A stretch of 64,000 nt of DNA, taken from assembly GCA_000934665.2 (NCBI GenBank), contig KZ538370.1, positions 1 through 64,000 of the forward strand, in the 5' to 3' direction. This document shows, piece after piece, positions 4,411-54,270 of this stretch (its first letter is position 1; the number at the start of each line of letters is the position of its first letter). The notes under the pieces are model-generated. The model searched no databases. It was not told where the DNA came from and worked only from the letters and a program-made list of their open reading frames with translations. The DNA comes from Catajapyx aquilonaris (lineage: Eukaryota). A program made the position numbers and the translations under genes.

Positions 4411-7400
4411 TTAGCTCTCTTGATTGGACTTACTACGTCGCTTAATCCCTGCAAGCTCGTTTTTAATGACACTGTTGCTTTCACTGCTGCTTTCTCCGCT
4501 TTTACTGCTCAGCTTCTTCCTGGCTGGCTTCGTATCGCCTTCGAATTTCAAGATGAACTTAAGCTCATCCTTTGCCACACTCCACGTGGAAACCTGAGAA
4601 TATGAATGGTTATTGTATACACAATCCCACCAAAACCCTTTCAGTAAAAAAAGGCCAAGTTCTCCTGACTGCTTGGCCGTAAAAAGTGGTGAGATCTGAA
4701 ATACGGCCAATAGTTGGTACACTCTACAGTAAATTATCAAACCTTTTCTTTCCTGGCTGTCTGGATACAAACAAAAATAAATTCTCCAAATGCGATTAAA
4801 GCGGCGATTAGGTTTCCAAAGACAATTAACCCAAATACTCCAGCAACATTAGCGACACCCAGGGCCATGTTTGGTACCTCTTTCTGCAATAAAATATAAA
4901 TAAAAAAGTTGAGTAACTTTAACATATATTGTAAAGTGACAGAATAATTATGAGAAATGAATACTCACAATACAAGGAGCACCTTTTCTTTTTTCTTTCC
5001 ACCATTTTGTTTTCAAAAGATCTAACTCTCCTTTTTCTTTCATTGCTAAAATTTGGTTGTTGAAGAGCTGTGTGAATGGGGAGCCTGTGTGGATATGAAT
5101 AGCAATCTATCACATAATATGGCCTGGTATGAATTATTACAGAGCGATATTGGATCATGTCAAAGAAAATTGTCGGGAAATTTAAAAAGGGCCAAATTTA
5201 TTATGATCATCAAAAATTAATTTATTGATTACCATATAAAGAACTGCTACCTTTTGGAAATCCTATGGCGTATCCTTTGTTATCCAACCATCCTCCTACT
5301 TGAAACAAGTCGCAGTTTCGTTCTACTTGGTACTCAATAATGGTCGACTCCATGAAAAATGCAAATTTTCCTTTCTCCCCAATGACCCTTTTCATTCCGT
5401 CGTCATTGTTCTGCACTTCGGCAATGTGTTCGGACATTACTTTGTAGTCGCTATCTGTACTTGTCTGCAATGAAACATTCATAGCATTTTGCAATTGACA
5501 ACAATGCAACAATGCAAACTTACACCAAAGAATTTTATAGTCGATCCAGACCCGACAGCACCGTATTTAATTTCAGTTTGATGAGCCAACTGTCTAGCCT
5601 CTGAAAATGGTGATGATGGCTTGTCGCTGGTAAGAAAGGCTGCCAGATTGGCAGTGTACGACGAAATGATGATGAGGATGAAAAAAGCCCATATACTCGA
5701 GGCCATCCGCGTAGAAACGGCCCTAAGCACAACATTATATTGTTAATACAAAAATTATTCTTATGTACTTTCCCACACATACTTTGGAGCCAGTTCTGTT
5801 CCTTGTTGCATCAATGATCCAATAGTGAACCAGAAGCTGTTCAGGAATCCAAATTGGTTCTCAAGCTCATCTGGTTCCTCTATACATGGATATGGATTGT
5901 CCCACTCGTATGGTGTTAATCTGAATAGTTAAAACATACATAATGAGAATATGCATGTATGTTGAGTACAAATTCCCTACCTTGCCACAAAGAATATAAT
6001 GACAGACACACCAACATATGCTATAGTCATTGATATCCAAACATCTTTAGAAAAAGGAGCCATGAAGGAAAAGAACGACGGAGGTTCTTTGAAAGGTTTC
6101 ACATACAGAACTCCAATACCTGCAATAAAATAGTGAACTATTTACATCACAATTAGCGTGTAGGAACTGATTATTTATATAACAAGCGTAGAACTACATA
6201 ATTTACGCATTATTATGCGATTCACGAGTCCTGGCCTGTTAGGCTCCTCCTCCGTCCTCCGCCCTCTGAAGGCGAGGTTTCCACGTCCGCGTCCGCCATG
6301 GCCTCACACGCCTGCCAGGAGGATGGGGGAGAGCACTTGGCAGCAGTGGATCGCATTGGGGGGGTGGGGGGTGGGGGGGACAACCAGGCCTGGAAATACG
6401 ACGACCCACCTATCCCTTGTTGAGACCGAACCCCGCACCATTGGCTCCTACTCGCGAGAATCACGAGCATTCCAGGCCTAATTTCTTCCGCCGCTGACGT
6501 TGGGAGGAGGTGGGTGGAGCCTAACAGGCCAGGACTCGTGAATCGCATAATAGCAGAGTTGAGTCAAAATTTCATGTCAAAGATTCAGTTTCTGAAATTT
6601 GGGTTGCATCATGCAAGGATGAGAAGTGACCCCAGGTGGAAGGGTACCTTTGCAAAATTGCTTGCCATACACTTACCTAAAGTCATGAAAGGCAATGTGA
6701 AATCCAGTGCTCCTGCTCGTTCTGAATTAACGCTTATATCTGCTACCACCATATCTGATTGCTGATGGAATAGAAACAAAAATAGATGGACTCAAGATGG
6801 ACCAAACCGCAACTTACCCCGTTCACTACTTCTCCTATCATTCCGTTCCATACTCCGGTTTGTTTGTCCAGTGAACCATAATTTCCATCTTCAACTAACC
6901 TTATCTTATATCTAAATGATAGGTTTCGAGCCAAGTAATCCAAAAATTCAACCACAAATCCCTCGTACTGATCGTTTCCTGACATTTTCTCAACCGATTC
7001 TTTCAGCATTGTTGTAGGATTGTTCTGGAAAAAATGCAATTTTAAATCACTTATTAACTCTAAATTAAGGTTGAAACTCACCAAAATGGTTGTGACTGTG
7101 AGAGTCCTGTTGACCAGGTTGCTTATAGCTTCTGATATTACTATTTCTGGAGGGTCCATCATTCGTGTAAAGTTGTTCTTCTTGGTCCAATATCCAGCAG
7201 TCTTTAACCCAGTGTTTAGCAGTTCAGTTACTTCCAGATTAAAATCAGTGCGATTGCCCATTGGATCCAGGGCCAAATGACCACTTAAGCCCTCAATAGT
7301 GGTCTGAAAAGAATCGTGTTGAAAGTAACAGTTACTTTTCAATTATTGAATTGGTGAGCTCACCATTTTCAGTTCATTGACAACACTTTCGCCGTCCATC

Positions 7401-9211
7401 CATGGCTGTTCGCTGTCACAGTCCAATATGGGCAATTCTTCCATCATGTAGTTCTTATTTTCATAGAAGTTGGTGATGGCCGTTGCGTACATGAAAACTG
7501 CGTCATACATCAAAGCTGCTTCGTTCTGTAAAAATTATGTAAATACTGTATTACTTTCTAAGTTACAACACGGCCTTAAGGGGGCACTACAGTAATCGAC
7601 CCCAGCGTTATATATCGTGTCGAGAGTGGCGTGACGTCACGCGGCCCTGGAGGCCCTTCGACACAGCGCTAATAGGTCTTTGACTTATGTACATTCATAA
7701 AAATTAAGTCCCAACTTCTTGTCTCTAATGTTTTTTTTGGCGATTTTTGTACAAAACCCTTGATTTTGCCTATACTGCCCTCTTAAAGTCAGCACGGAAA
7801 TGGACAGGTCCGATGTGATACTTACCTTGAGGGTATCCGAGGTTATGTTCATGGGTATGTCTGAATATCGTTCCCAACCTGATACAATATCTGCTGCATA
7901 CCCATGCGGATTCACCACTCTGAAACCTGTGATGTTAGCATTTGCATACTGGAAACTCTCCAAATCCAGCGTATGAGAATCCTGCGTTTAAAAAATAATC
8001 ATAATTATTTAGAGCAATTTTTTCAAATATTGTAGGACCATACCAATGAGGATAGGATGAATCCGTTTACATCCGTCAACATTCCAACTTGCTGGGCTTG
8101 CAATAAGACTTCAAACGTTGTTTCGGCTGATGCGTACAAAAACACATTACCATAAAACGCACTCTTCAAATCCCACAGAAGTGGCCTGTCGACATTTAAA
8201 TATGTAAATATATTTTTCTATATTTTAAATAATGCAGTAAACACACCTGAAATTACCATCCTTAGGTAGCTGACGCATGATAAACCTCTGCTGTAATGGA
8301 GCAAAATCTAACATCATCTTTTGGATGATCATGAGCGAATTTGTGTTTTCATATAGCAAAGCGAAGGACTCCCATCCCCAGGACTTGATGACATCAGTGT
8401 ATGCCTTCACCAGCATCTCATGATAAGGGTGAATATTGACCACCTGCTTGTCTATGCGATGCCTTATATCCAACCGGGTTTGCAGGCAAGCGATGTTCAT
8501 GGCCTCGCAAATTGATTGAAGATAAGTGGCAGCGAAGGGATCAGATGGGCCAAATATTGAGATCACTCCAGAACTCAGAAGCTTGCACACTGAAATGCAT
8601 CACAGAATCTCCACTTAAGATGCATATACTGTATTATTAATAATTTTTTCACAATATGTAAAGAAAAATGGGCCATAGGCCAGTAGTGTTTCCAAATAAT
8701 TTTTTAACATGATATTTGAGAAGCACAGCCCTCTGCATATATATAATCAAGGTAAAAGTTGGCAAAAATAGATGGAATCTTGACCTGCGTTAGACTGGGG
8801 GAAAAAAATGTTGGGCATTGGGCCCACTGCGATTTAAAACACTGCGTATTTTAATAACACAAATATTTATCAAGTTCGTACCTTTGACTTCAATCTCATG
8901 AGCTGAGTCCTCTCCTACAAATTCGATGTAATGAACTAGCCTAATGAGAGGCCATATCTGTCGATTTGAAGAATGTGGCCAATATTCCTGATTAGCGTTC
9001 CATTCTTCCACTGCAGCTTTAAAAGCCAGTACTTGTTGATAGTCATCCTTATGGAATATTCCACCTTTTGTGATTTAAAAAATATTAATATTGTGATAAA
9101 TTTGGGTATAATATTGTGCTTACCGATGCGTACTACTCTGGACGGCCTTTGACACTTGGATATGTCCACCAACAACAATATCAAAAAAATTGCACATAAC
9201 CACTTCATCAT
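4411..9211 (-). CDS. Kainate-type ionotropic glutamate receptor, divergent tandem paralog A (16 exons)
   Basis: Exons: 9124-9211 (signal peptide [20 protein letters not shown]), 8882-9064, 8247-8589, 8044-8185, 7826-7981, 7364-7525, 7082-7303, 6818-7024, 6677-6761 ([19 protein letters not shown]), 5981-6119, 5783-5920 ([11 protein letters not shown]), 5524-5722 (SYTANLAAF), 5251-5464 (FFMEST), 4969-5084, 4743-4883 (M4), 4411-4593. GT-AG sites and phases are consistent. Confidence 0.93.
4626..4698. mobile_element. 74-bp interspersed element, copy 3 (inverted)
   Basis: Reverse complement of 11221-11294 with few differences. Flanking duplication is degenerate or absent. Confidence 0.8.
6211..6552. 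mobile_element. MITE with ~37-bp terminal inverted repeats (family 1, copy 1), in intron 9 of paralog A
   Basis: tattatgcgattcacgagtcctggcctgttaggctcc ... ggagcctaacaggccaggactcgtgaatcgcataata. A highly similar inverted copy lies at 54271-54617. Confidence 0.9.
7580..7782. mobile_element. Probable TTAA-flanked MITE in intron 5 of paralog A
   Basis: TTAA|GGGGGCACTACAG ... CTATACTGCCCTC|TTAA, imperfect TIR. The orthologous intron is ~60-80 bp in B and D. Confidence 0.55.
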
Positions 9212-10007
9212 TACAATTTAATCACTGTCATCAGCACACAACACTTAATCACTTTTCCACCACCTTAATTTTAGTTAACTCACTTATATCTTCAAAGTAT
9301 CAAAACTTGTAGCAACCGACTCCCAGTCACTGTAAATACAACTTCTTGTCTGCTGAAACCTACGAATAACCAAGGCTGATTGCAACGAGTAGACAAGAAT
9401 AGGTTTGGAACACCTTGTTTTATGGTCTCCGAACCACCTCTTTGAAACTTAGTTTAGACCAGGTTGCAGACTTATATTGTGCAAAGTTGTTGGACCAATC
9501 GGTCCAAATATTTTGCAAAATTTTTTTGAAACACTAGACGTGCTATTATTGGACCGTTCTAAAAAGTGGACATCCTATTAGACTAATTCTCGTACTGAAC
9601 TGTTATTTTCTTCCACAGACTGTAGAGGCCTTGCGGTTATTTTCGTCTGGAAATCGGGGTGACGTCGACGTAATAATGCAGTCCATCATTTTATCACCAA
9701 CTCACATTAAAATTAATTTGAGACGGTTGGGTGGAATTAATCACGTTTGGATAAAATTAATCGTGTTTAATACGAATGTAACATTAATACAGTAGTGACA
9801 CCTGGAGATTTTTCACAAGTACTACCGGTATGTCCTGACATGTTGCAGGTGTTAACCGACTCATGAGCATCATTTGGACCTCATTGGCACCATCTAAACA
9901 ATAAACAGTGTGTGTGCGGTACCCAAGTGGGTCAATACCACTGGTGCAAAATTAGACCTTCGAAGAAGAAAACAAACAAAGGTTCCAAAGACTATAAATA
10001 TGGCTGA

Positions 10008-16000: not shown

Positions 16001-16962
16001 AAATACTGTAACTGTGTCAGTCAGAACCGGAAATAGCTCTGCTAATGAGTTATGCATTAGTGCAACAGACGCCTAAGAGTAACAAATTCAAATTATTTTT
16101 ACCACCAAATACCAATTCTCTTATTATATTAGGATGGTTGGCCATGCTGTGGCTTAATGTATGTCATTTAAATATTTACTAATTTATTGACTACAATTAT
16201 GCTGTTTATTAAGGATTTAATAATTACATTCATTAATACCGTTCTCTACTGTGAACAAACCATTTGAAACACGTCAATTAAATTCCTGCAATGCTCAGTT
16301 ACTTTTTAACTAATAAATTTATATAAAGACATTCCAAAACGCTACTTTGGTATCAGTTATCGGTGATTATTTAAAAAAAAAATACTTTTGCAATCGTGTG
16401 AACTTAAAAGTGTCTCTGCAAATGAGGGAAAAAGATGCTACATATTATACCAATTTACAGTAAAGACCTCGCATTCTTGCCTTTGGACATGCTTTCGTAT
16501 TATCTTACACCTGATCTAACGCAAGTTACACCATGAGGAAAAGGAAATCCGGTTTTAAGGTACTTTAGCACGTTTATTTTCAAACCAGCTCCTATCCATA
16601 CATGGCATTGGGAAAACCGATCTCCAGTTTAAAAATCTCATTTACTATTTAACATTCTATATTTTTCAACCCCAAAATGGGTGTTTTAATATAGTATTTG
16701 GTACACTTAATTGAATTTACGAATTGATCATAACTGTCATTATTATTTACTTAGGTTATTTTTTCGGGATACTGCGGGCTAATGCTTACATGGGGGACCA
16801 CAAAATACTATTTATATAACTTTTAATTACATTTCACTAAAGAGAATTATGTTTGTACTCACCAATTTTAATCACTTTTAAATAATAAGCCTGCGATGTG
16901 GTGAAGTTGACAGATGTAAATATCAACGCCAGTAGAATCACATAAAATAATGAATGACCCAT
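10008..16962 (-). CDS. Kainate-type ionotropic glutamate receptor, divergent tandem paralog B (16 exons)
   Basis: Exons: 16863-16962 ([34 protein letters not shown], not in the ORF track), 14541-14696, 13928-14270 (GC donor), 13730-13871, 13517-13672, 13292-13453, 12978-13235, 12713-12913, 12292-12376, 12097-12235 (GC donor), 11809-11946 ([12 protein letters not shown]), 11330-11528 (SYTANLAAF), 10634-10862, 10464-10579, 10259-10399, 10008-10202. Many exon lengths match paralog A. Confidence 0.92.
10902..11194 (-). mobile_element. Non-autonomous Helitron-like element
   Basis: Minus strand starts A|TCTAT, has a (CTGT)n microsatellite near the 5' end, and ends with hairpin cccggccaacgccggg followed by CTAA|T. 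Confidence 0.65.
11221..11294. mobile_element. 74-bp interspersed element, copy 1, with a perfect 30-bp flanking duplication
   Basis: tagattttactgtaatacacatcaaaatat at 11191-11220 and 11295-11324. Other copies at 33779-33852 and, inverted, 4626-4698. Confidence 0.85.
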
Positions 16963-17728: not shown

Positions 17729-17801
17729 GAGGCGTATACTCATGCAGGTCACTCGCAATCGACAAAGTCGATTGCGAGTGACCTGCATGAGTATACGCCT
17801 C
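17729..17801. repeat. Perfect 35-bp inverted repeat with a 3-nt loop
   Basis: gaggcgtatactcatgcaggtcactcgcaatcgac-aaa-reverse complement. Confidence 0.9.
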
Positions 17802-33900: not shown

Positions 33901-36900
33901 TTGACAGGAGCAACACGTAATAATACTGCCCATTGTTGTCACCGCCTGATAGTTTTCGGCCCAACCTTAATCGCGACTGCAACATTGAATAAACAGCCAG
34001 TTGATTCGAGCAGAGAGGAAGGTTTTAGTGCCTCAGGTGTAATGATGCCCAGCCTAACGATCCAGAAAAACCAAAGAAAAAATAATAAAAAAGGTCGGTT
34101 GACACAGGTATCGGAAATCCAGGCTGCAGTCCATGGAGGATTTTAAACTTGTGACAGGCCTTACTTTGGAAGGATGTCACAACCCTGGGTTAGGGAACCC
34201 AGAGCGAACCACAGGCAGCTCTGAAAACCAAGCTGAGTAACTAGTTCCTCTGTCTCCTGTTTTGGACTCCCTGGATCTTCCCATTCATACGGGCTAAATC
34301 TGGAACAAAAAGGCACAAACAAAATGGCACGGGCGTGATCGATTATTAAATTGTGCTCAAAAAAGATATAAAAAATTTTCTTGGCTGATGTTGGCGAAAA
34401 AAACTCTAAAATTATCTGCAAGAAAGTTTTCGGAGCTATTATTTTGACAGTAAGAATAGTTGAGACATGTCTGACCTTGCCAGTACGAACATGAGAATGG
34501 ACACGCCCATGTATGCAGCAGCCATGTAAATCCACACATCAGGCCCTAAGGGTTTCAAGAATGAAAACAAGTCCGCCGCTTTGCTCTTCGGTTTCTTGAA
34601 CAAGATGCTGATACCTGAAAATCCATAGAACATTCAGTGCACATTAATATTTTAATTATAATTACACAGCATACCCAAGTCAAGAAACGGCGTTGTGAAG
34701 TCAACGTGCTCCTCTCGTTCACGTGTAATTGTCAAATCACCTATGGCCAGGTCAGCTTCCTGTAAAGCAACACAGTGTCAATATTGTTCAACAATGAACC
34801 GTGTATAGTTGCATATATTACCTGAGTCAACAATTCCTGAATCATCCCATTCCAGGTCTCAGTGTCCTTATTGTATGACCCATGCTGGGCATCACCGACC
34901 AGGTGTATCGAATAGTTAAATCCAGTTTCGTTAGCTATTGCTCTAGCCAAGTCCACTGCATATCCTTCCAGCCTCTCGTTGTCAGGTAGTCCTTCAGAAT
35001 TAGGTTTCTCACTACAATATGGCTCACCCTGTGTGAGAACCACGAGAAAATATTATTGACATTTCCCGAACTGATGCAACAGTTGGCCTACCAGTTTGGT
35101 TACGATCTTGAAGTGCTTCTCTCTTATATTCTCTTCAATTTTGGCCTGCAAGACAGTGTAGTTTCGAGTGATGGTCAAGTTGCTTTGATCAGTCCACACC
35201 CCTGTTTGGTTGTATCCGTCTGTGGACACCTCAACTAACTCCAATGTGAAATGTTTTCTAAATCCCAGTGGATCGAAATTGATTTTCCCAGTGAGTCCAG
35301 TAAATCCCATCTGTAGAAAGACAATGCATTGTAACATCATAGAAATGTAATGCCCTATGGATCTTACCCATTTCATTTGCGTGATGATGTTTGACCCATG
35401 CTCCGCCTTTTCTGTCCCATCGCAGTTGAGCTGTTTGATGTCGATGGGGCGTACCGAATCTAGTTGGTGAAGAGCTTGAGCAAAGAGGTGTACTGCATCG
35501 TAAATAAGGGCTGTCTCCGTCTGAAAGCAAGGTTAAGTGTTGCGTAAAATTGTCGCTCTGCAGGCGCTAACAAGTTTGACAACAGTAGGCGACTAACCTT
35601 AATTGATGTCATGTTTGTATTGTTCAGTGAGTCCTGAAACAGATTGAACGGCCCATGCAGAAAGGGGGCATTAAACACAGTGCTATAAATCGAGTTAGAC
35701 TATATAGGAAAACTGTGTGAGAAGAGGAACCAATCTGTCCAAATATTGACACCATCAAGTGGCAACAAATGGGCCCTTGTTGCTTGGGCTGATAGCCATC
35801 GACAGTCCTTGACTAGATGTTCAAAAATAGCTTAGTTTTTACACACAAAAAATAACCTTGTTAGCAATCTTACTACTACTTGTCTCATAAAGTCCTGTTC
35901 ATGAAATTCATGCAACTTTTTATAATTATGATTTGAAATGCAGAATATTTTAAGGTACTATTTCTCTCATCAATTTTGACCACTGCATTCCATTCTTATG
36001 CAATATGAGCAAGCAAGCCAGTCCAATTTGGCATGTAACTACCTACTGTCCTGTGGAGTTGGACATGACATTCCTTAGGCTTTACCGGTACCCTATACCG
36101 TACATTGTATGCCAAGGAATTACCAGAAATCAGTGTTGAAACTCTATTTCCGTCTCAGCCCGCCTCTCCCTATTCGTGAGTAATATCACTAGAAACTCAT
36201 TACCGAACAGATTCACCCAAACAATATTACGTCATTATAAACATTTCCGTCGCTTGTTAGCTTCCCCTCTATATAGTTAGCTTCCCAACAACATTTGCGG
36301 CGACTTCTCCTTGCGCAGCACCCTACTAATTAAGCTTGTTTGCAGAACCGTTTCCTCCATAATTTATGCTTCCCTAGAAAAAAAAAAACTCGGTGTGTTA
36401 TTAGAAGCATGGCGTTTGTCAAAATGACATTCCCTGCAATTAGTCTGCAGATCCAGGGCCTCCGGTAATGAAAGGACCGTAGATCAAACGTTGCGGAGGG
36501 AAGTTGGGCATCACCTACCCTATAGCTATTTAACTCTGGGTAGGAATTGAGAGTAGTTAGATCGATAAACCCTTAAGGATGGGTCCTAGCAATAATGCTC
36601 CTTTTCCTTGGTACTACAGTTTGATTCGCTTCCTCTCGAAAAAAACCTTTTCCACCAATCCTTTTACCTTTGGGATTTGATCGCGAAAGCCTCCTCTCCT
36701 ACTGGGAATCATATTCATTTTCTTCCAGTCATTGAATATCTGCTTCACTTCTTCTTTCTCCGGATCGAACAAACGAAAAGCGCTTATGTTTGCTCGATCG
36801 TGAACAAAATCTTCTAAATTCAGAGTGTGCACATCCTGAAAAAGAAGAAGAGTATTGTTTGAGATGGGTTTGACAACGTCATTTGTTACATAGGAGTAAC

Positions 36901-39900
36901 CGGAAGACACCTATAGAAAATTGGGTGAGGCCCAACCCAACATCTCATTTGAGGCCACGTTCCTAGGTTTTATTTAGCAAGAGTACATAGGATGCTCACC
37001 AGCGAGGTTAAGATGTACCGGGCTGAATCTCCCATCATGCCGACTTGCTGCGCTTGTCTGAAGATCTCCACAATGTTTTCGGTGGCACAGTCTAGGACTA
37101 TGCGGAATTCTAGCTTTATCTTGAGCTCCTTCAGTAGTCTCCTGCAGGAGAAACAGTTTTTTCAGTCATATCCCAGATATACTTGGGCGAGGGATGCCAA
37201 GCGCCGAAGGCGCGCGAAGGAGGCGAAGCCCGGGGGGTGCTGGGGGGCGAAGCCCCATCGCCGAGTGTAGCGAGTCCCATGGTACAGTATACTGTACCGT
37301 GGGACTCGCTACGCTCGGCGATGGGGCTTCGCCCCCCCAGCACTTGGTAGCTATACTAACAAGTATATACTTAAGTATATGAAGTATACTATTATATGAC
37401 GTATACGAAGTATACTAGTAAGGTATATGAAGAATATGAAGTATACGAAGTATACTAGTATGTGAAGTATACGAAGTATACTAGTATACGAATGCAACCG
37501 GCGGATACAGCCCTATCTTCAGCGGATACACAAACATATGGGCCGGTTGCGGGGACCACTTGGGGTTTGCCTATATGCAGGCGGGTGCCCTGGAAATTTT
37601 GACATGTGATTCACTTGTGTAAAATAAATGTTTCTAACAGGTAAGTTGGTGTAACGCACCATAACGATGCAAAGAGTGCGTGAAGAGACCTTCAGAATAT
37701 ATACGCAATTAGGCTACACCGCGGGCCTTTGAAGTGTTTTTTAGATTGGGCCATTACGCTCTAAAAGGAGCAGAGGAGCCATTAACTTACAGGCTGGAAT
37801 TTTTTCATCTTTTTTTTTTAAAAAAAAAGCTTAATGAGGATCCTCATCTTTCGAGGACCTCCGCTCCAATTCCTCCAATACGGCTTCATCTATTGTAAGG
37901 CAGAAGGCAGCTTTTTGGGGGACCCTCTTCTTTTTTTTCTCAGTCTTTTCCAAGTGCCATTGGGATTTTTCCTCACTTTGGGTAATGGCCAGAACATGGG
38001 CTTTGAACCGTTGAATGGAATTTTTTTTCACTTCTTCTCAGGCGCTTGTTGTACAATTAGTTTTCGAGTTTTATATGGGGGACCTGCATAGTCCCCGTGA
38101 CAGCTGGCGCCATCGTTTTATTGCGTGTTTCGAATTTTATGAACATCTTGGCGGTTAGTGCCGTTGGGATGTAAAGTAGCCGCTACTTTGAATAACGTTC
38201 GTATCCGGAGCTGTTTTTAGCATAGCTTATCCATAATTTGTGCTCAGAAAATGGCAATGAAGATAACATTCACTTTCTTAACTCACAGAGGCAGTAAAGG
38301 ATAAGTAATTTACGTTGCATACCATAACAACAACCCTATTTTTGCCTTGTTATGAACAATTGTTGCTGACTCATTTTGGCATCATTTTGGTCACATGATG
38401 CACTTCTTGTAACTTCAGGTAAGACTTCTAAGAAATTTCAGTCTGTTCTTGTTAAGAGTTTGCAATCTCATGTTATGAAGCATTTCCTGTGCAAGCTTGA
38501 TGTCCTCGCCTTTAGAGTTTGGCCTTCAGATGTGAATAAGCCGACTGAGGTTGGCCGCCATTCAGCATTCCCTTTTGGCGCATCCCAAACACCTCTTGTG
38601 GGTTTATTTTGGGACTTTCAGCCTACTTCGACCGAGTCCTGTTTCTCCCCCACACATGCTGCTAAAGCCACTTGTGTTGTGACAACACATTTCGATCACG
38701 TGAAAAAGCCATGTCCCAGTCACGATCCAAATATTTTCTATGGACTCTGCAACTAATTCTATATCATCCAGGTATACCTGTAGTCCTTGTTTTGTGGAAG
38801 CTGACGGACAGTGATTTTGGAGCCAAAGTCTGTCGAGCTTGGAGCCTTAAGAAGCTCCTGGAGTCTCACAAGACCATCGTTGTCTTCATACAGGACAGTG
38901 AAGGTCTTCCACTTGTAAGCTCTCACCAGGTCCACATACGCCTGTAACAATAATAGTAAATAGTTGCACCATTACAATAAATATAGCCATTTAAAACCGA
39001 TTGTACTCCGTAATGTTTACAACTTTTTGAACTGCTATCAACATCCTGATTTTCCCAATGACAAACAGGAAGTGAACCCCCTGATTGGACACTTCCCATA
39101 GGCTAGATAAATCGGATCCTCTTTTCCTGCATGGCACGTTCAATATGTCCCCCTCATAATCAGACGACCTCCCCTAAAGTTGAACCATCTCCAAGAAAAC
39201 CTCCCCCCATTCCTTCATAGACAGTCGCCTCTAAAAGTGTCAGTCTTGGCGCACTTAAATGGGCTAGGACAAGTGTGGTATAACCCTTCTCATGGATGAT
39301 GTGCCGACGGCATCAAATGGACCGGGAGCAAGCGACAAAAGGAATGATGGAGCCTAATACCCACCAGCAAAATGGTACTATAGTACCTGCCTCCCTTTTC
39401 CTGTGGACCCGGACTTTATGTGCGGAAATTGCGTGCGTTTTATGACAGAGTCAATAGGGAAAGAATGTGGCAATTTTGAGGGAGTCATGTTGGACCGCAG
39501 ACTCCAAAAATGTGGAGAGGAAAGTGGAGCCAAGAAGAGGGTTTTAGGATGGAAGAGAGGTTGTTCACATAAGTGTTTACATATAGCGAAATGTACAGTA
39601 CAGTACACGCTCACAACATATTAAAATCCTTCGTTGTATGGGCAGTATGGCCCACTGCTCCTGCGCAATGCAGCGCCTCTGGTGGATGGCAGATGGAACT
39701 AGCCTTCTATCTGTTCCATCTCCCATCCACAAGAGGCGCTGCATTGCGCAGGAGCAGTGGGCCATACAACGAAGGATTTTAATACTTTAAATGACTTTAT
39801 ACCTCTTGAGTACTGCAGGAGGAAAATCCGGGCATAATCTGATCCTTTCTTATCCTTAACTGTAAGCACTGCTCGTAAATCAGTCCTAAACTGTTGCTAT

Positions 39901-42900
39901 TGTTTAGAATAAGCCCTGCTGTGATTGTTTTAAATGCGAGCTCACTGAACCCTGATTAGTCTGCTAACTCAAACATTTTCTGCCGCACACTGATGTTTGT
40001 TTACGTAAAGTGAAATAAATGCCAGCATCCATTCCTTCCTTCTCACATAAATTTCAACAGTTTATTGTACAGTACAGTGCACACTTTGTACTCGCCATTA
40101 TTTTTCTACAGTCGTGTACCACACAACACACTAAACTATGACAATATTTTTATAAACTATTATCCAATAAATTATTTAGTTAGTAAAATGACGCTCCTAC
40201 TTATCAACTCCAGCTCCATCTATGATAGAACCTGAATGGAGCGAATGTTGACAATTCCCTGAGGCCTTCCGATTGAATTAGCTGGCTGGGGGTTCTATTG
40301 AGGGAATAAAACCGTGTTTTATGGATCAGCGCGCAAATCACTGAAAGGTTTCGACATCTCCACTTTTTTTGAGGTGGTCGAAAAGTTAGGGTTCTCCTAA
40401 AACGCTCTTAGGAAACAAGCACTAAGTTTCTCCTCTCGCCTGCTGAGGAAGTTATATAAAAAAATTAATTTAACGCAGATATATCTTTAAGTAGTAGAGC
40501 TGCACGGAGGTAGATATGGAGACTATGAGGTGGTAGCTGCCGAGGATCCAAGTGACATATGACAGGCTGCCAGGGGACAGATAGAGCAATTTCGCACTCA
40601 ATTTGTTCCCGGATTGTGTGATAAGACGACTCCTGCGAGAGCTTTTGCTTGCTTGACTCCTTCCTCTTGCCTAGCTGACGTTGCGGAGAAAATAGGATTT
40701 TGGCTATCAATTACACGCTCGCTTCCGGTGCTGGATCCGCCCCAGTGTAATCACACAGACGCAGTATACGCTCAAAATGCTATAAGCCACCATGAAATAT
40801 CGTCTTTCACATTATTATTATTATTATTATTATTCACCCATGAATATCGATATATTGATACCTAACAAGGCGTATAAAGAATAATGGCGCTTTGATGCGA
40901 CAACGTTATTATTATGCAAGCTTCAAGTGCTAAAATCAGCATGTTATCCACAAAGGATGTTTACATCCTGCTCTATTCATTTTGAAGGATAGTTCAGCAT
41001 GATTATGACTTTTTATAGAACAAGGAATCATTTTTAGCGTATCATTTGAATTAGGGCTGTTAAAAGTATGATTGTGCAATATACAGTCTTTTAAAGGATA
41101 GAATAGTCTGATGTCACCTTCATCCCGCGCATGCTCAGAAAACACGGCTGCTGCGACGTCAAACCATTCTTTCGTTTAAAGGGACTCTCCACTCAAAAAA
41201 CAAGTTTGTCTCTAAAAATCGGGCAAAAAATCCTGAATCCGAAGGTGCAATTCGTTTTTCTCTACGCGGAACGGTAACCCCAGGGCGAGGTGTCAAAGTG
41301 GGTCGTCTGCTAATGAGCAGCGCCGCCACGCGGGGAACAGGGGAACTGGAGGGCTGCACCGCTCTGGGATGGGCCTCAGCGTGCGGGCAGGCGGGAGCAG
41401 CCCTCCAGTTCCCAAGGTCCTGGGGGCGTCGCTGGCGGACGGCCAGCTTCTATAGCGCACTATTTGAATTTCACCATTTTGACCCCTCGCCCTAGGATTA
41501 CCGTTCCGGGTAGCGAAAAACGGATTGCACCTTCGGATTCATGATTTTTTGCCCGGTTTTTAGAGCCAAACTTGTTTTTTGAGTGGAATGTCCCTTTAAA
41601 GGACTGTACCGGAAAAGTATCTTTTGAAGTATCAAATCATCTGCCTGAATACGCTCCTTGAGAAATCCTTCTTAAACCAGGTTTAAAACCGGATCGTTAA
41701 GTTTGGAGGGCGGTCTTGGCTGACATGTTCACGAGCGTCGAAGTTGTGGAAAGGGGGGGCTTATGGAGTATATAGGTAGAAAGAGCCATAGGAGTAGAGA
41801 GGAGGGAATGAAAAGAGTGGAAGAATAATGGACAAAGTTTTCCGGACGATGTCACACCAGAGCCATCTCGGTGCTGGTTTAGTTGCCAAATTTGGTAGGA
41901 TGGTACGCCCTTTTTTCCCTGTGTGTGTGTACAGTGTAATGTATTTGCAAGCATTTTCGCATCCGTTCATTTGGCCTGGGACCAACTGTTCTAAAAACCC
42001 TAGCAGAAAACGAAGATTGGGGAAGCTGGTGGGAATCGCAGTTTGGTGGAAACTAGAAACACCCCCCCCCCCCCNATCCTGGAAACCTAATGGAACCCAG
42101 GGGAGGTTTTTTCATTTCGGATTGAGTGGGCATGCTCATGTCCACGATGGGATCTGAGCCTAGCATCCGGACAATACGGGGGCTTTCAGACTTGTCCGGA
42201 ATAATTGTTCATTAAGCCAGATAGAAAGGGCGTTGTTGGGATTCAGCACGAACACTGGCTTGGTGTCAAGAAGTGCTTTTTGTGCAATGAGAACTGGTAT
42301 AATATAGGATGTTCCCATAAGGGTCATACACCGTTTGAGAAGTCCTATACCAATCATGAAAGGGCAATCCCTACCCCCGAAAAAAAACCCAGTTCTATAT
42401 TCAAATAATTAAAGCTCAAAATGTTACTAGATCCTTTGATGCTGGGTAACGAGAACACCTTCCAGCCAATTTACTTTCCGGACGAATAAATAATGTACAA
42501 AGTTTCTAGCAAAAGGTTAATTGGCTACCCTTATCTTCTCGGAAAACGCAACAGAGTAATTCCCCTTTTGGCAAATTATCCCATGGGTTTTCGAGTAAAG
42601 ACCTCACGCTGCGCAGTTATCAGCTCGAAGCATTATTTGTGAAAATGAGTCAAGCATTACTAATCGATGCCGTCAGCTGTTTAGAAAGAGAAAGTTTAAG
42701 CAACATTACTAATGTGGATAAAGAATAGCGTTTATGAGTCGCTGCTATTTGTAACAGCGATTTTTTTAAAAATAATGCGGCTTAAATATCAAGTGGTCCA
42801 ATTTTCAAAATCTAGCCTCCCAGATAGGTTACAGTGTTGAATTACACGCTCTCTGCCGATTGGTAGACCCCAGAAGGCGGCAGCTGGAGCCAGACCAGGC

Positions 42901-45900
42901 AGCGATTCTAATTAGTGTCCTTCCACTCTGTAATCCCGTCCATAAAAGCGAGGAGAATATTGGCAGGAGAGAAGTGCCAGAGTTTGCAGATCATTTGACC
43001 CCCCCCCCCGCTAGTGATGACCCACTCCTATCTATGCTCGTTATTTTTTGGGGTTACTTTTTTGATTACTCCGGGAGATTGATGAAAACGAGCTGCTATC
43101 CGCTAGCAGCTGCTGCTTGACCCAATATTGCCAATAGAGAAATGGTGGATAGTGACGCAGAAAAATATTTTGTTCGTTGAAAGTTCCCATCCACCAGAGG
43201 CGCCCCGTTGCGCAGGCGCAGAACGCGAGCCAATCAAAAGCCTTGGTCGTATACAACGAATGATTTTAATATTATAGATCAGCGGTTCCCAAACTGTGCT
43301 CCGCGGTGGATCTCCAAGTGCTCCGCGAAAAGATTGGGAAATAAAATATGTAAAATTAATGTGACAAGATCTCAAAATTTTTAATTTGTGTGGCCATGAA
43401 CTCTAAATTGGATATAAAACTGCCCCCCCCCCCCCCACGAAATGTTTGAAATAGCATGAGAAATTACTAATATATTCATGATTTTTGGGGGGAAAAGTGC
43501 TACCAATTTAATCAAATCTCCTACATTCACCTAAGCTCGTGTGACCTTGTACCCACGAATTTCTCTCCTGAAAAGTGTTCCGCGATTCGAAAAGTTTGGG
43601 AACTGCTGTTATAGATAGTTGAAGTAATATCTACCGACACAATAAATAAAAATATTTTTCACTTTTATTAGTTAATATAGCCAACTACTCCAGTTTAACG
43701 ACATATATATTGGGAATAAGAATTTGTACTTAAACTCCAATCAATTTCGTGTAAAAATTAACCGGTACGTTCCTTTAATCGGGGGTGTTCCGGTCATTAA
43801 AATTCGCCTAGCTGATGAATAATACAAGTGCCAATATGGAGCTCATATTATGTATGCAGGGGGCCCCATTTAAGCGCATTCTGTCATGCATAATGATCGA
43901 GGCGAATATTGGGGAATGGCTTCACATTATTGTACATAAACTTTAATTGACTTTTGTTCTCACCTCCCTTTTTTTTAAAAAAATCCCTTTTTGTGTCTAT
44001 AGGGGGTCCAAAATTTAACAGACAACTAGATCCCCTCATGGTTAACGTCGCTTTTAAAATGTAAACCTCACTAATGAGCTGATTCCTTGTTGATAGTTTG
44101 GTCTCTTTTCATTTTCAAAGTCATGACAATGAGGCAGTATATTTATTAACACCTGCACGTAGCTCTGTATTGTTTAACGATGGAAAGTCGTAATGAACTG
44201 CTGTAATGTTTTGGGAGGGGAGGGTGGCCCTTTCACAGGGTTTTCACTAAATAATGTGCATTGATGGTGATGAATGTGCTGCACAGGGCTTTGTGGCAGG
44301 AAGAATGTGTAACGCGATTGGATTTCGGTGTCAGTCACTTTTTTGGGGGGGGATGGCCTAGTAGCTGTGTCGATAAGCTGGCTAATTCTCACTAAACTGC
44401 TGGTTTCAAAAACCGCGATGATTTTTTTAAACCGCACATTTTCAAAAATTATTATATGACGTCACAACAGTAATTGCGTACCTATTTCAAATATGAAACA
44501 AGCTGTTACTTCTTATACAAAATTAGGACACACTTAGCTACAAACGCTAGGTGAAACTAATGTTTTAAACAGAATTTAAATTATTCGCATTTCACAGCCA
44601 TATTGGAATTGGCTAGATTTATTAGTGTCAAATTAGTGTCAATATTAGATCAGTTCGCATTTTTAAATGCCACCGTATGACGTCGCAGTAAAGTGTCGAT
44701 AAACCCTGTCACATTGAAAACCAATGTCATATTCAGGAATGTTAGTACCAAATCACGCGACCATAAAACCGCAATTATTTTTTAAAAACTTGATTGAAAT
44801 CTACCTTTCAAATATCGCACATTATTGTGACACTGGTGTCCTGGCAAATAAAGCCGACATAGAGGCAAATGAAGTGTTGACTTTTTACCTTGCTGAGGAT
44901 GGATGGATGCGGGTAGAGGTTGATGAGGTATTTGTCCGAGCCTGTGCGTTGCCGGAAGTCCCATCGGGTCTCGATGTGCGGAACAGCCATGGCGTCGCAG
45001 ATGGACTGCACGTGGCTGGCAGTAGGGCTGGATTGGGGACCAAAAATGGCCGCCACACCAGACTTCAGGAGATGGCACACTGATGGAGGACAGAAGAAAA
45101 AAAAAAACCAGCTTTATTTAACCGAACCATTGTTGCAGGAGACATGAAATTTTTGTAGAAATGAAACACATTATTCTGATATTGTAATCCTATTCTTTCC
45201 CTTTTGTATAGAACATGAAATGTATAATTAGAACAAAATGAATTCAGAGAGATTTTAGGCCACCTCCGGATTTTCTAGTAAGAATAACCCTCCCATCCTG
45301 TTTCCCTTTTCTTTTTTCTTTGAATATGGAACATGGGGCTCTGAATTCTAAAGCATGCCAAATGGGAAAGGTTATATGCTCGCAGGCTCCCCGAAATTTC
45401 TTCCTGCTGGTGAAGCTTTCATTCTCCGGCTGTATCCGCACATTTTTTGAATGCACCCACCCTATACCACCCATCTAGAAGAGAAAAAAAAAATCTGCAT
45501 AGCAAGAGCCTGGTTCCAAAATTCAGGGAAATCCTCTAGCAGCCCAAGAATTTTCATTATATGTTAATTCGTCAATATTATTCCGGCTGATTTTTCTACT
45601 CCATTTCCATGGATCAAAGTTAGCTGACATTACACATATCTTCGATCCATTTTTTTTGTTGGAGACCCTGGCAAATTAATTACTAGTGAGCTGTGCCCCA
45701 CCAACCAGTTTTAATTTCTTTACGAGGATTACACCACGGTGAAATCACGCAAACTTTTCCTCCCGTGATGAAAGAAGGGGAAGCCCGGGGAAGCCCCATT
45801 ACGTAAAGCCCACTCCGGGAAAATGCTACTTTTTTTTAACACCATCCCACACATCTATATACCTAGTATACATACTATGGTTGATTAGATTTGGCCTCTC

Positions 45901-48900
45901 TGGGCAACAACACCAGCGAATTGCGGAGAATAATGTTCCATTAATTATGTACTAGCAATGGAGTTTCCGGTGGGCTTTCTCCATAGGGCAAAGTTACTAT
46001 GAAACTGCAGAACGGGACCGGAATAACGCAAAGGTGAAACGCTCATGAATTACTTGATGCTGGAAGGAGTTTTATGGGCGGGAAAGTTGTGTCGCGGTTA
46101 ATTCTTGTGGTATCACTGGTATGAGGAAAGTATGAGCGAGTGTGAGCAATGTTATGAAGACGACACAAGTCCTTAAAGGGACACTCCACTCAAAATACAA
46201 GTTGATCTGTAAAAATCAGGCAAAAAATCCTGATTCCGGTGATACCATCCGTTTATCTCTGAGACGAACGGTAATGTCAGGGGAAGAGACGAAAGTCGGA
46301 AAAAATTCGAGGTCTGTTCGAGAGTGGCGCCGCCTGGCCACCTGTCCAAGTTAGGCGACGTTGGATAGTAGCGCCGCCATTCCCAACGGCGTCTTGGATA
46401 AGTTGCCTGCGGGTATGGGGATCCGTGGGGATCTGGTTGTCTGGCGCTCTATCCAACGTCGCCTAACTTGGCCAGGTGGCCAGGCGGCGCCACTCTCGAA
46501 CATACCTCGAATTTTTTCCGACTTTTGTCTCTTCCCCTGACATTACCGTTCGTCTCAGAGATAAACGGATGGTATCACCGGAATCAGGATTTTTTGCCTG
46601 ATTTTTACAGATCAACTTGTATTTTGAGTGGAGTGTCCCTTTAAAATAAACCTGGTTTTTTTGTATTATATTGTGACGCCCCCGGGTCCGCTGGACTACC
46701 AAGAAAACACCTGGGTTCCATGGACCTATGCAGGTCACCACCTTAGTACAGACTCTGGTTACCAACTGACTCTCCCCTGGCCAAAGCGAGGGAAGCAGTG
46801 CGCATGCCCCGCCCGCATCACATGACCAGAAGTGGCCGGGCTCTCACACTATGTACCCGATTCTTTAATTACAAGCTACAGATACATGTTTATGAACCCG
46901 ATAATTTTAATAACACGAAGTTAGCTTGTACTAATTGTTTATATTTTGAATACCAGAGGCCATGCTCATTAAAAGCACTATAAACAGCCACAATAGGCTT
47001 GTGGCCTAAAATGTTAACATGTAAAAAAACCGCTCTTTGTTGGAAACCAGTTCTATCCTATAAATGAAGCTATCACAGCTCAATTCACATCACAGAATGC
47101 GTAGAAAAACAGTGTGGGCTGTTGTTTTGCATGCGTACAGTACTTACGGTTTTTTAAGAGTCACCAGGTACTACTGTAGAAGAGGCCTGAGTACAGCGTG
47201 TTTCAGTTGCCCATTGTTGACAGCATATCCAAAATATTGTTCAGACTCCTGTGAAACCTGACTTTAGCTTTATACTGTGACGTCCAGATTTACTCTCTCC
47301 AAAAAATTGCTCCTCTACATTCCCCCAACAAAGCCTCGCAACATACCCCTTCTCAGTATAAAAATGGTTGCGATAAACCAAGTCTCCTGAATAGACGCAA
47401 TACCTTATCTCCAGAAAGGCAAGGCTTGAAGTTGTTGTGAGGCCTGAGGGAGCCACCACCTTCTCTTTCTCTCTTCTCTCTATATCCCATCTTTGCCATA
47501 CCCGTCCCGTCCTACGTGTGCGATAAATTCCCAACTCCAAATATCAATAAAGCCGCAGGGAATTAAGGCAAAAGTGACCCGAAGAAATCATGCTTCCAAA
47601 CTTTTGGCCCGAGAATATTGGCTCTGGCTCGAAATCGGATCGTTTCTGCCGTCGGGGTCTAGCGTCTCGTAAAAGGAAAAACTTGGCTCTTTCTACGGGA
47701 TTATCCGAGAGGATATATGCCCACCCCGCTTATTCTGCTTTTCTTTTTTTATTATTCGGCAGATTTCGACTTCTTAATGGCGCGCCAATATTGGGTTTTG
47801 CAATAACTGTGAAGATCCAGGGTAACAATCTGAGTCAACCAATAGCAGGTGTCAATTCTCGGCTGGAGCCAATGGGCTATGTGGCTGACAGGGTTGCCAT
47901 TTAGGGGGTGTTCAAGCTGAAATGTTGTCGCTAAACTAGAGTAAGAGCATAATATTTTTTTAATTTTTTTAATTTTTTTTGAAAGAGTTGTGATGGACAT
48001 TTGCAAGGATTTTACATATTTCCTGCCACTTCAGGTTTCTCCTTTCCACCCTCTACATCCGGTCATGACCCCGCCTTCTTCCAAACTGGACCCCAACTGG
48101 ACCCCTGGAGCGAGGGGCTTGATAAATACGATGATTCAACTCTGGACTTCTGATTCCAGTGGTTCCAAGTAGAATCGTTCAAACTAAGTTAAATGGAATT
48201 ATCAATATTTTTTTGACTTAGGTAGAGTTTTTGTCGAACAAGCAAATGTATAAAACTTGAAAACAATTTTCGTAGATGACATGCTTCGAGTGCCCTGCAT
48301 GTGCGGGCCATTCTTTCCTGTTCCAATTTTGGGGTGTAGGCAATGTGAGTATGTCGTCTGAGAGAAGTGGAGGATCTGACTAGTCATGGTCATGTGGAGT
48401 AGAAAAGGACTTCTTCGTGCACTGTATAGAAACAGCACAGGCGGCAAATGAAGGTAAGATCTTCCCATTCCTCCATTCCTTTTTTTTTCTCTCTCTTTCT
48501 ACTTTTTTGGAGGAACCCGTGGAGCAATATCGAATTCGGAGACTGTCTGGAAAGAATTGGTTGGAGGCAGTAAAAGAAGCCGTCCTAAGGTACGACTACA
48601 GTTTCTTCACAAGCACTAGAGGTTTGAGGTAGTAGTCAGGAAGAAAGGAGAGTGTAGCTGATGGGAGGCCCCCGCTTTCCCATAAGCGAAATTACTTTTA
48701 TGCGGTCATATTACGGGGACGGAGGGAAGGTATTTCATTCAGATGAGACGGTGCAAAATGTATGCATATTATTTTTGCGACGGTGTTTTGTCCGTTGTCG
48801 TAAGGATTAATGATGCAAAAAATTCGACTATTCTGGAGAGCTTTTATGCGAGCTGTGGGATCGACCAGATTTCACTTTTTATTACCTTATAGTATAAGGT

Positions 48901-49850
48901 ATTACCTTATAGTATAAGGTATTACCTTATACTATAAGGTAATAAAAAGTGAAATCCTGTCGATCTTATAGGTATAGGTATAGGTATAGGTGTAGGTATA
49001 GGTATAGGTATAGGTATAGATGTAGGTATAGGTATAGGTATAGGTATAGGTATAGCTGTTTTATTATTTGTAATTTTTATTATTCAAACGAAAACGTTGT
49101 ATGTTTTCATGTATTACTGTACAGTGCCCATTCCACACCATAGTGAGCATCTTATTTGAATTCCACATCCATATACAGCTTGTCCCACGTATTAAATTAC
49201 TTCGGGGCCGTGGGACATTATATTGGCACAACACCACTGTTACGTAATCTTGCAAATTTGCTACTGTGCTGAAAAAAATAGCACCATATAACGTATTGTT
49301 CGGACCATCTGCTTCCACCGAGCAGACATCAGCAGACTACTATAGCCGAGACACTGGAAGACAATAATAGCAGGACCCCTGGATTTATTGAGCTCTGCAC
49401 GTGGGCAGTGTGTCTTATACAATGGTAAAAGATGGTGGGACAGCGACTCGGCTGGGTCCTTTTGTGAGCCTCTTACTGATGGTGGTCACTCTGATTTAAA
49501 ATAATGGACCTGACAGCCTGGTCATTTCGTTTGGTCCGAGGGTTGGAAATATAGCCTAGATTTTCAGGAGTGAAACACGGGAGCTCATTTCCATAAAATG
49601 AAGCCCATCTATTCTTACCCCATGCAGAGTGAACTTTGGAGAAATGAAAAGATCGATCTATTTTTTGTAGGTTTTTAATAAGAGAACCCCTCACCTCTTT
49701 TGGAAGCGTGGAAGCTGTCCTGGGGGGCAATGGGCTCCACTTGGGCCGAGAGTCGAGACCTGGTGAGAATGGTACGGTCTCCGTTGATTCGGTTGATGGC
49801 ATACTTGAAAGCCACCTCTTGGATGGTATCGCTGGTGTCGAACAGTCCTC
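30915..49850 (-). CDS. KaiR1D: Conserved kainate receptor subunit (gene E), KaiR1D/CG3822-like; 5'-partial (signal-peptide exon not located)
   Basis: Exons: 49695-49850 ([52 protein letters not shown]), 44889-45079 ([29 protein letters not shown]), 38778-38941, 37000-37141, 36668-36835, 35598-35633, 35368-35520, 35092-35310, 34822-35028, 34675-34759 ([15 protein letters not shown]), 34476-34614, [34165-34299 or 33209-33346], 32504-32702 ([24 protein letters not shown]), 32218-32449, 32047-32162, 31826-31981, 30915-31058. The ATD resembles insect KaiR1D as I recall it; orthology is not tested. Confidence 0.9.
33209..33346 (-). CDS. Gene E alternative pore-loop exon 'b' ([46 protein letters not shown])
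   Basis: 138 nt, phase 2-2, acceptor tctgtttccag, donor AA|gtaagg, canonical MQQG filter. Confidence 0.92.
33779..33852. mobile_element. 74-bp interspersed element, copy 2, with a ~30-bp flanking duplication
   Basis: atactgctgtcgccacaaccagtcagta on the left and atactgctgtcgccaaccagtcagta on the right. Confidence 0.85.
34165..34299 (-). CDS. Gene E alternative pore-loop exon 'a' ([45 protein letters not shown])
   Basis: 135 nt, phase 2-2, acceptor ttttgttccag, donor AA|gtaagg, open frame. Confidence 0.88.
37237..37343. repeat. GC-rich ~105-bp palindrome followed by gaagtatac(tagta) tandem repeats to ~37490
   Basis: gtgctggggggcgaagccccatcgccgagtgtagcgagtcccatggtacagta|tactgtaccgtgggactcgctacgctcggcgatggggcttcgcccccccagcac. 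Confidence 0.8.
39619..39784. mobile_element. Hairpin MITE
   Basis: tattaaaatccttcgttgtatgg...cccactgctcctgcgcaatgcagcgcctct and its reverse complement. A related half-copy lies at ~43196-43271. Confidence 0.75.
41180..41595. mobile_element. TTAA-flanked palindromic MITE (Kolobok/T2-like)
   Basis: TTAA|AGGGACTCTCCACTCAAAAAACAAG ... CTTGTTTTTTGAGTGGAATGTCCCT|TTAA with long inverted arms. TTAA TSD plus AG..CT ends fit Kolobok. Confidence 0.85.
43280..43608. mobile_element. hAT-type MITE
   Basis: TIRs CAGCGGTTCCCAAACT / AGTTTGGGAACTGCTG and a perfect 8-bp TSD TTATAGAT on both sides. Confidence 0.9.
46177..46640. mobile_element. TTAA-flanked palindromic MITE (Kolobok/T2-like), related to 41180-41595
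   Basis: TTAA|AGGGACACTCCACTCAAAATACAAG ... CTTGTATTTTGAGTGGAGTGTCCCT|TTAA, with ~190-bp near-perfect arms. Confidence 0.88.
48859..49054. repeat. Palindromic tandem repeat (attaccttatagtataaggt x3) inside an inverted repeat, followed by a (TATAGG)n microsatellite
   Basis: Directly visible. It explains the spurious RYRYRY ORF. Confidence 0.85.
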
Positions 49851-54260: not shown

Positions 54261-54270
54261 TATAATCCAA

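Follow-up and report, generated by a model that had tools for sequence, protein, structure and literature searches.

The window analysed here, 64,000 nucleotides of Catajapyx aquilonaris DNA (contig KZ538370.1 of assembly GCA_000934665.2, positions 1 to 64,000), holds an array of five genes, designated A to E, for kainate-type ionotropic glutamate receptors (iGluRs). Four of these genes (A-D) are compact and divergent, and an initial annotation of the same DNA had proposed that the fifth (E), which is long and conserved, was their parent. The evidence assembled below favours another history, in which A-D are probably, though far from certainly, four tandem co-orthologues within a pan-arthropod clade that we call clade X, making them a lineage-specific expansion of the GluRIID/IIE type beside a KaiR1D-type gene. 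On this account the long conserved gene is probably not the parent of the compact ones, and the array is an old two-subfamily neighbourhood in which one side has expanded.

Placement of genes A-D and history of the neighbourhood

The placement of A-D was examined in six trees, built without any sequences of ionotropic receptors (IRs). Tree 1 (46 rows) was inferred under LG+C20+F+G4 by posterior mean site frequencies (PMSF) and tree 2 (75 rows) with FastTree. Tree 3 (45 rows, PMSF) left out the very long Ixodes row P0193, and tree 4 (37 rows, PMSF) left out the spiders (P0203, P0138), beetle P0147, the Drosophila halves, P0014, P0233, P0016, P0332 and P0006h1, with P0349 and P0368 added. The last two trees, both made with FastTree, used either the columns of the amino-terminal domain (ATD) only (tree 5; P0008, P0259 and P0347, which lack this part, left out) or those of the ligand-binding and transmembrane domains only (LBD+TMD, tree 6; P0233 left out).

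In all six trees A-D were monophyletic (support of 100 in the Shimodaira-Hasegawa-like approximate likelihood ratio test, SH-aLRT, or 1.0) with the topology ((A,B),(C,D)); a lack of monophyly was among the outcomes that the initial annotation had said would refute it. The group also lay inside clade X every time (supports of 98, 0.935, 94, 92, 0.882 and 0.939 for trees 1-6 respectively) and was never sister to E. This position held when the long branches of spider, tick, beetle and Drosophila were left out (tree 4), and it was recovered from the ATD and LBD+TMD halves separately. Besides A-D, clade X includes proteins of the centipede Strigamia (P0189), the spider Caerostris (P0203) and the ostracod Notodromas (P0347), along with insects such as Cimex, Rhodnius, Rhynocoris, Cloeon, Ischnura, Schistocerca, Periplaneta, Neodiprion and several beetles, Anopheles AGAP000798, and both halves of the fused Drosophila models P0011 and P0013. 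On this placement the subfamily would be pan-arthropod, and the proposal of one private to this lineage is not supported; it is the four-copy expansion that would be lineage-specific. Full-length identity of A-D was 39-42% to E, 41-43% to insect KaiR1D-type proteins, 38-40% to insect X-type proteins and 43-45% to the ostracod X-type protein, so that E does not stand nearer to A-D than the KaiR1D-type proteins of insects do, and with the trees this runs counter to the proposal of E as their parent.

The Drosophila members of clade X allow it to be compared with named receptors. Clustered at 90% identity, P0013 (D. willistoni) falls with two separate D. willistoni proteins and with one to which NCBI gives the name GluRIIE [Drosophila tropicalis]. 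We take the gene CG31201 to be GluRIIE. A table in PMC4382183 places CG18039 (GluRIID) and CG31201 together at 92F4, CG3822 at 93A2, CG5621 at 93A2-A3, Ekar at 102D1, CG11155 at 102F8 and clumsy at 39B2. From the naming of the cluster and the 92F4 entries it follows that the Drosophila tandem pair of clade X is GluRIID/GluRIIE, which comes close to the possible parallel with insect neuromuscular GluRII subunits drawn in the initial annotation. Table 1 of PMC5225553 assigns GluR2D and GluRIIE to the kainate subtype and lists GluRIIA, GluRIIB and GluRIIC as orphans. The mosquito gene identifiers that we found in the literature, including an Anopheles sinensis paper, are listed without subunit names and supplied no name for clade X.

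Like A-D, GluRIID and GluRIIE are full-length kainate-type proteins with an ATD that fall in this clade in our trees, encoded by a same-strand tandem (92F4) near KaiR1D (93A2). They differ from A-D in being two copies and not four, and in having arisen by independent duplication, the fly pair being mutual sisters and A-D likewise. Identity between the two sets is only 35-36%, and A-D have private changes in M3, in S1 and in the S2-M4 linker (see below).

Neighbourhoods in other arthropods, read only from locus tags, contig data and a cytology table, offer several comparable arrangements. The X-type and KaiR1D-type genes have consecutive locus tags in Rhynocoris (O3M35_003152 and O3M35_003153), share one contig in Anopheles gambiae (AGAP000798 and AGAP000801) and a single 776-kb scaffold in Frankliniella, and map to 92F4 and 93A2 respectively in Drosophila; linkage is weaker in Rhodnius, Macrosteles, Homalodisca, Cloeon and Schistocerca, where one chromosome-sized contig carries both types. 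Two X-type units are fused in gene models of Drosophila, Phlebotomus, Bradysia, Ooceraea and Frankliniella, while on one scaffold of Cimex lie two X paralogues (P0267/P0313) that are 79% identical. The insect tandem pairs (Cimex and the fused models of Phlebotomus, Bradysia, Ooceraea and Frankliniella) resemble A-D as same-strand tandem duplications of an X-type gene, but they are pairs, some of them young (79% in Cimex), in contrast to the four copies here, whose mutual identity is 50-63% and whose synonymous sites are saturated. In the light of these comparisons the layout of the window, a KaiR1D-type gene followed by same-strand X-type copies, would be an old arthropod kainate-type neighbourhood of which only the X side expanded. 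Fly neuromuscular GluRIID/GluRIIE would thereby be tied to a pan-arthropod clade that tends to adjoin a KaiR1D-type gene and to duplicate in tandem, a distinction of use in annotating arthropod genomes, where all these genes are labelled 'kainate 2-like'.

A number of observations weigh against the assignment of A-D to clade X. An approximately unbiased (AU) test on the 45-row set leaves a clade of A-D plus E unrejected (log-likelihood difference 9.2, p-AU 0.354), clade X has moderate support, starred in a single tree, and the stem of A-D is long enough (about 1 change per site) to raise the risk of long-branch artefacts. The nearest neighbour of A-D shifts with the taxon set, from spiders (trees 2, 3 and ATD-only) to the ostracod (tree 4), and the raw identities given above are about equal to everything compared. 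Across M3, the ATD, the S2-M4 linker, S1, S2, M4 and the C-tail we found no decisive motif or indel common to A-D and either clade X or E. The X-type and KaiR1D-type genes lie on different contigs in Laodelphax (typed by similarity only), Bradysia odoriphaga and Hetaerina. The trees were built without D. melanogaster GluRIIA, GluRIIB, GluRIIC, Clumsy, Ekar, Grik and CG11155, and clade X may hold more named genes; no protein bearing the names GluRIIA/IIB/IIC, Clumsy, Ekar, Grik or CG11155 was among the search matches. The search for receptor genes was confined to this window, leaving room for a second X-type gene elsewhere in the genome, and the run that supplied transcript evidence (X5, see below) is of unrecorded tissue, with B and D lacking clear transcript support (D lies beyond the mapped 20 kb).

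These points bear most directly on a history in which E was copied within this lineage, the copy diverged fast and was then serially duplicated to give A-D, the clade X placement being a long-branch artefact. We regard this as a serious but rather unlikely alternative. The AU test leaves it standing (p = 0.354), A-D and E are direct same-strand neighbours sharing the 14 introns downstream of exon 2, the stem of A-D is very long, the branch of E is long too (0.67-0.87), and no synapomorphy links A-D to clade X; yet none of the six trees recovered it, both protein halves independently put A-D in clade X, and A-D are not nearer to E than to insect KaiR1D-type proteins. It also requires that the X-type gene, which adjoins the KaiR1D-type gene in Rhynocoris and lies close to it in Anopheles, was additionally lost or relocated, and E has an additional intron and a second pore exon that are absent from A-D. 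Sister subfamilies would in any case be expected to have intron positions in common.

An improbable alternative is that A-D form a third old kainate-type subfamily, neither X nor KaiR1D-type, that was lost or is unsampled in most arthropods. No protein compared is more than 45% identical to A-D, several near-invariant motifs are altered only in them, and database searches with the ATD exon of A returned little that was close: a word-based search gave no scored match from 23 candidates, and an exhaustive profile search of 1.84 billion representatives gave 923 matches at E-values <= 1e-3 and none at <= 1e-30 (best 103.5 bits). A protein atlas search for close orthologues of A-D returned only generic ANF_receptor clusters. 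All trees, however, nest A-D inside X and not outside X plus KaiR1D-type, and the proteins of this animal and its near relatives seem to be absent from the databases (the best match of E is ~60-64%), so few close matches are expected under any model. Membership of A-D in clade X is thus the best-supported placement, if not a proven one.

Gene models, transcripts and age of the array

We located the exons by an all-against-all BLASTP of stop-to-stop open reading frames (ORFs) together with tblastn using a crayfish kainate receptor (P0027), which agreed in giving five collinear series of paralogous exons, all on the minus strand; the G+C content of the window is 35-48%. Gene models (Table 1) were then made with a purpose-written protein-to-genome dynamic-programming spliced aligner that allows three intron phases and GT-AG sites, with P0027 (crayfish), P0015 (Rhodnius) and the paralogues for one another as templates, and the last exons were extended to stop codons. 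Signal-peptide exons of A-D were chosen by an ATG, a hydrophobic stretch, an end in ..(R/K)(I/V)G and a phase-1 GT donor. Exon 1 of B was picked on sequence features only (like that of A, C and D, it has a signal-peptide-like start, a ...KVIKIG end and a GT donor in phase 1). The first intron of B (14697-16862) is 2166 nt long, compared with 59-290 nt in A, C and D. For E the signal-peptide exon was not found, either by a pattern scan or by a heuristic hydrophobicity-plus-donor scan of 49860-64000.

Table 1. Modelled receptor genes and additional features of gene E, in window positions.
Feature	Position	Strand	Description
Gene A	9211-4411	-	16 coding exons, 905 aa, span 4801 nt; spliced alignments
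Gene A exons	9211-9124, 9064-8882, 8589-8247, 8185-8044, 7981-7826, 7525-7364, 7303-7082, 7024-6818, 6761-6677, 6119-5981, 5920-5783, 5722-5524, 5464-5251, 5084-4969, 4883-4743, 4593-4411	-	
Gene B	16962-10008	-	16 exons, 904 aa, span 6955 nt
Gene B exons	16962-16863, 14696-14541, 14270-13967, 13871-13730, 13672-13517, 13453-13292, 13235-12978, 12913-12713, 12376-12292, 12235-12103, 11946-11809, 11528-11330, 10862-10634, 10579-10464, 10399-10259, 10202-10008	-	
Gene C	23418-18419	-	16 exons, 909 aa, span 5000 nt
Gene C exons	23418-23316, 23025-22870, 22450-22111, 22059-21918, 21850-21692, 21452-21291, 21166-20939, 20873-20673, 20601-20517, 20443-20305, 19965-19828, 19767-19569 (GC donor), 19456-19222, 19121-19006, 18936-18796, 18604-18419	-	
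Gene D	28828-24397	-	16 exons, 906 aa, span 4432 nt
Gene D exons	28828-28720, 28628-28467, 28411-28078, 27969-27828, 27774-27622, 27543-27382, 27325-27086, 27029-26829, 26767-26683, 26612-26474, 26347-26213, 26157-25959, 25321-25087, 24957-24842, 24775-24632, 24561-24397	-	
Gene E, KaiR1D-type	49850-30915	-	16 exons found, at least 869 aa, span at least 18.9 kb
Gene E exons	49850-49695, 45079-44889, 38941-38778, 37141-37000, 36835-36668, 35520-35368, 35310-35092, 35028-34822, 34759-34675, 34614-34476, 33346-33209, 32702-32504, 32449-32218, 32162-32047, 31981-31826, 31058-30915	-	
E-specific phase-0 intron	38942..44888	-	5947 nt; divides into 191+164 nt what is a single 304-343-nt exon in A-D
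Second E pore-loop (M1-M2) exon	34165..34299	-	135 nt, AG and GT sites intact; upstream of the 138-nt copy 33346-33209

The array structure is real, and most of what the initial annotation had said of it was borne out: the ORF comparison, tblastn and the spliced models all give five intact head-to-tail genes on the minus strand, and the compactness of A-D against the length of E is as described. The limits that had been given for the array, 4411 and 49850, are the last base of the A stop codon and the first base of E exon 2. No frameshift or premature stop was found, A-D each having one terminal stop codon and zero frameshifts, and the frame of E being likewise open as far as its only stop, at the end. 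Every intron in the models has GT-AG borders with the sole exception of one GC-AG intron in C. The GC donor of that intron (19567-19568, minus strand; GAG|GCAAGT) stands at the conserved site and restores the 199-nt exon of the other genes, the next in-frame GT being 39 nt further.

Intron phases are identical across A-D (1,1,2,0,0,0,0,0,1,2,2,0,1,0,0), and those of E are the same with one extra phase-0 intron. The shared positions and phases that had been claimed thus hold for all 14 introns downstream of exon 2, which the five genes have in common. The claim of identical exon lengths stands for the exons of 142, 85, 199 and 116 nt, present in all five genes, and fails in one gene for that of 139 nt (133 nt in B); a 138-nt exon is likewise found in four of the five (135 nt in D).

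Genes A and C are transcribed and spliced. None of the runs listed as containing this sequence is recorded as RNA; the evidence comes from transcript-like contigs of run X5, of unspecified kind and tissue, compared over 20 kb that cover the A-C region but not D and E. One contig joins the A exons 7303-7082 and 7024-6818 directly, exactly as modelled, and one record holds A 5464-5250 and 4589-4350 with 260 nt between them, where the model predicts 116 + 141 + 4 = 261 nt; the 3' untranslated region (3'UTR) of A accordingly extends to at least 4350. Other contigs cover A exon 2 (9065-8882), C exon 3 (22450-22123) and the last exon of C with its 3'UTR (18602-17963). The 5' half of B (12971-16972) has no X5 contig cover, a blank that is uninformative on expression, and the contigs cannot rank expression levels. 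A further contig (21294-21542) runs unspliced from C exon 6 (21452-21291) into the upstream intron as far as 21542, and may represent unspliced RNA or an alternative 5' end.

The duplications that produced A-D are old. Protein identity is 63% for each of A/B and C/D, 60% for A/C and 50% for A/D, third codon positions are only 38-45% identical among the pairs, and nonsynonymous divergence (dN) is 0.26-0.42. Synonymous divergence (dS) by the Nei-Gojobori method (NG86) was incomputable for all six pairs because synonymous sites are saturated, and so no dN/dS ratio can be given. That reading frames have nevertheless stayed open over ~905 codons points to purifying selection and argues against pseudogenes. 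The topology ((A,B),(C,D)) agrees with the gene order E-D-C-B-A and is compatible with a first duplication and two subsequent ones of single genes. Serial tandem duplication, as proposed in the initial annotation, is therefore consistent with neighbouring genes being sisters, and its accelerated divergence is seen in the long stem of A-D (0.99-1.19 changes per site). In the history that we propose, a gene of the X type, the faster-evolving of the two subfamilies, would have duplicated once to give the ancestor of A/B and that of C/D, each of which would have duplicated again long ago, with strong sequence divergence afterwards.

Domains and predicted function of A-D

A-D are kainate-type (non-NMDA) iGluRs, with the ATD, the S1/S2 ligand-binding domain and the channel domain all present. 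Single-exon scans of A matched the Pfam families ANF_receptor (PF01094) on exon 3 (E-value 5.2e-11), Lig_chan-Glu_bd (PF10613) on the S1 exon (2.6e-19) and Lig_chan (PF00060) on the M3-S2 exon (9.4e-16). Exon 3 is alignable across A-D, and the ANF_receptor match agrees with the earlier statement that these genes retain a full ATD. The closest solved structures to the M3-S2 exon of A are GluK2, GluK1 and GluK3.

Residues expected of a glutamate-gated channel are largely in place. All five genes keep the SYTANLAAF gate and MQQG at the pore, the S1 arginine (within ..(E/D)RA..), the S2 (S/T)T of G(S/T)T..FF and the S2 glutamate of FFMEST. Among these, R and T are named as glutamate contacts of iGluRs in the part of PMC5769321 that we consulted. 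The S1 threonine of the usual DLTIT is a serine in A-C (D(I/V)SVN) and is kept as threonine in D (DITVN). Compared with 41 other aligned sequences, the changes private to A-D are WAFFILI for WWFFTLI at the start of M3, FLYAS for (V/I)LDC in the ATD, D(I/V)(S/T)VN..RA.ALDF for DLTIT..RE.AVDF in S1, and a shortened WWKE(K/N)RKGxPC linker before M4; the motifs singled out in the initial annotation (WAFFILI against WWFFTLI, FLYAS against VLDC, and WWKE(K/N)RK) are present as it described them.

Tuning IRs, which belong to the same superfamily and in which tandem arrays are common, lack an ATD. A-D by contrast have an ATD and a kainate-type pore and retain the R, T and E that bind glutamate; on the strength of the ATD and the glutamate-binding residues they are not IR-like. 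Each would be a working glutamate-gated cation-channel subunit with signal peptide, ATD, S1, M1, pore loop, M3, S2 and M4. These subunits would form tetramers, either among themselves or together with others of kainate type. Judged by sequence, A-D most likely do function as channels.

That some or all of A-D are instead decaying or non-functional is very improbable. Fast sequence evolution, the replacement of WWFFTLI by WAFFILI near the gate and of TIT by SVN in S1, and the blank over the 5' half of B in X5 (with D lying beyond the mapped stretch) could be read in that way; but four frames of ~905 codons have stayed open despite saturated synonymous sites, no splice site departs from the canonical forms, and A and C are transcribed and spliced; the pore, SYTANLAAF and the R, T and E that bind ligand are retained as well. 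The four genes are very probably functional.

What the receptors do in the animal can be approached through the fly members of clade X. The fly neuromuscular receptor requires four different subunits plus Neto, with GluRIID/GluRIIE obligatory (PMC11649521), and by analogy with these Drosophila clade members alone A-D may have a postsynaptic (muscle-type) role. If A-D are muscle receptors, the assembly of multi-subunit neuromuscular glutamate receptors could be studied in them as an independent natural experiment. A bolder idea, which we hold to be doubtful at best, is that A-D are the four subunits of one obligate heterotetrameric muscle-type receptor, built independently of dipteran GluRIIA-E by tandem duplication of a single GluRIID/IIE-type gene; were this true, the WAFFILI, SVN-for-TIT and S2-M4 linker changes would be co-adapted, and a receptor with four different subunits would have had a second, convergent origin. 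Expansion of an ion-channel family to four tandem genes is in itself ordinary for an arthropod, here with unusually derived motifs. In the literature on the gene family in general, supplements being outside its scope, we found no paper describing this array.

Gene E, repeats and flanking sequence

By its sequence E appears to be the orthologue of the slow-evolving neuronal 'kainate 2'/KaiR1D subunit. It fell within the KaiR1D-labelled ('kainate 2') clade with support of 85 in tree 1, 93 in tree 3 and 0.894 in the ATD-only tree and was unresolved in tree 4; the label follows the RefSeq naming of P0015, P0380 and P0395. The best matches of its M3-S2 region, with a query that held an in-frame intron, were arthropod 'kainate 2' proteins at 63-64% identity. 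E shares with the KaiR1D-type proteins of insects and crustaceans the motifs TVER(L/M)DSPIE and CEFVWKSRK, and its duplicated pore exon resembles the two pore versions of other insects. It is, however, much more divergent than the insect members, which are 84.5% identical mutually, compared with a mean of 58.7% between E and the insect KaiR1D-type proteins, and its branch measures 0.67-0.87 in trees 3 and 4. A-D lie outside the KaiR1D-type clade in every tree.

The two pore-loop exons of E both have good AG and GT sites and are therefore probably mutually exclusive; the upstream copy is one codon shorter than the downstream one (Table 1). Two pore versions also occur among KaiR1D-type isoforms of other insects, and the version in P0057 has R at the Q/R site. 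The two longest introns of E contain two related palindromic (foldback-like) elements, at 41107-41671 and 46136-46843 (ORF comparison).

The initial annotation had also mentioned a monocarboxylate-transporter gene. None was seen: of the 95 stop-to-stop ORFs of at least 58 aa in the flanks (15 in 1-4400 and 80 in 49700-64000), none matched any Pfam family.

Repeats are scattered through the window. In run X1 (DNA) the summed contig word depth reached 7,000-26,000 at 4300-4966, 10303-11636 and 18307-18973, against ~40 elsewhere, and these bins are high-copy repeats in the 3' end of A, in introns of B and around the last intron of C. The ORF comparison links 4598-4723, 11085-11373 and 33679-34143, and separately 12583-12698, 18555-18763, 56244-56602 and 60233-60362. 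A further repeat, at 6164-6791 and contained in the 557-nt intron of A, has a translation 70-93% like that of an opposite-strand stretch at 54207-54694, about 48 kb away and outside the cluster, and is probably a transposable-element fragment.

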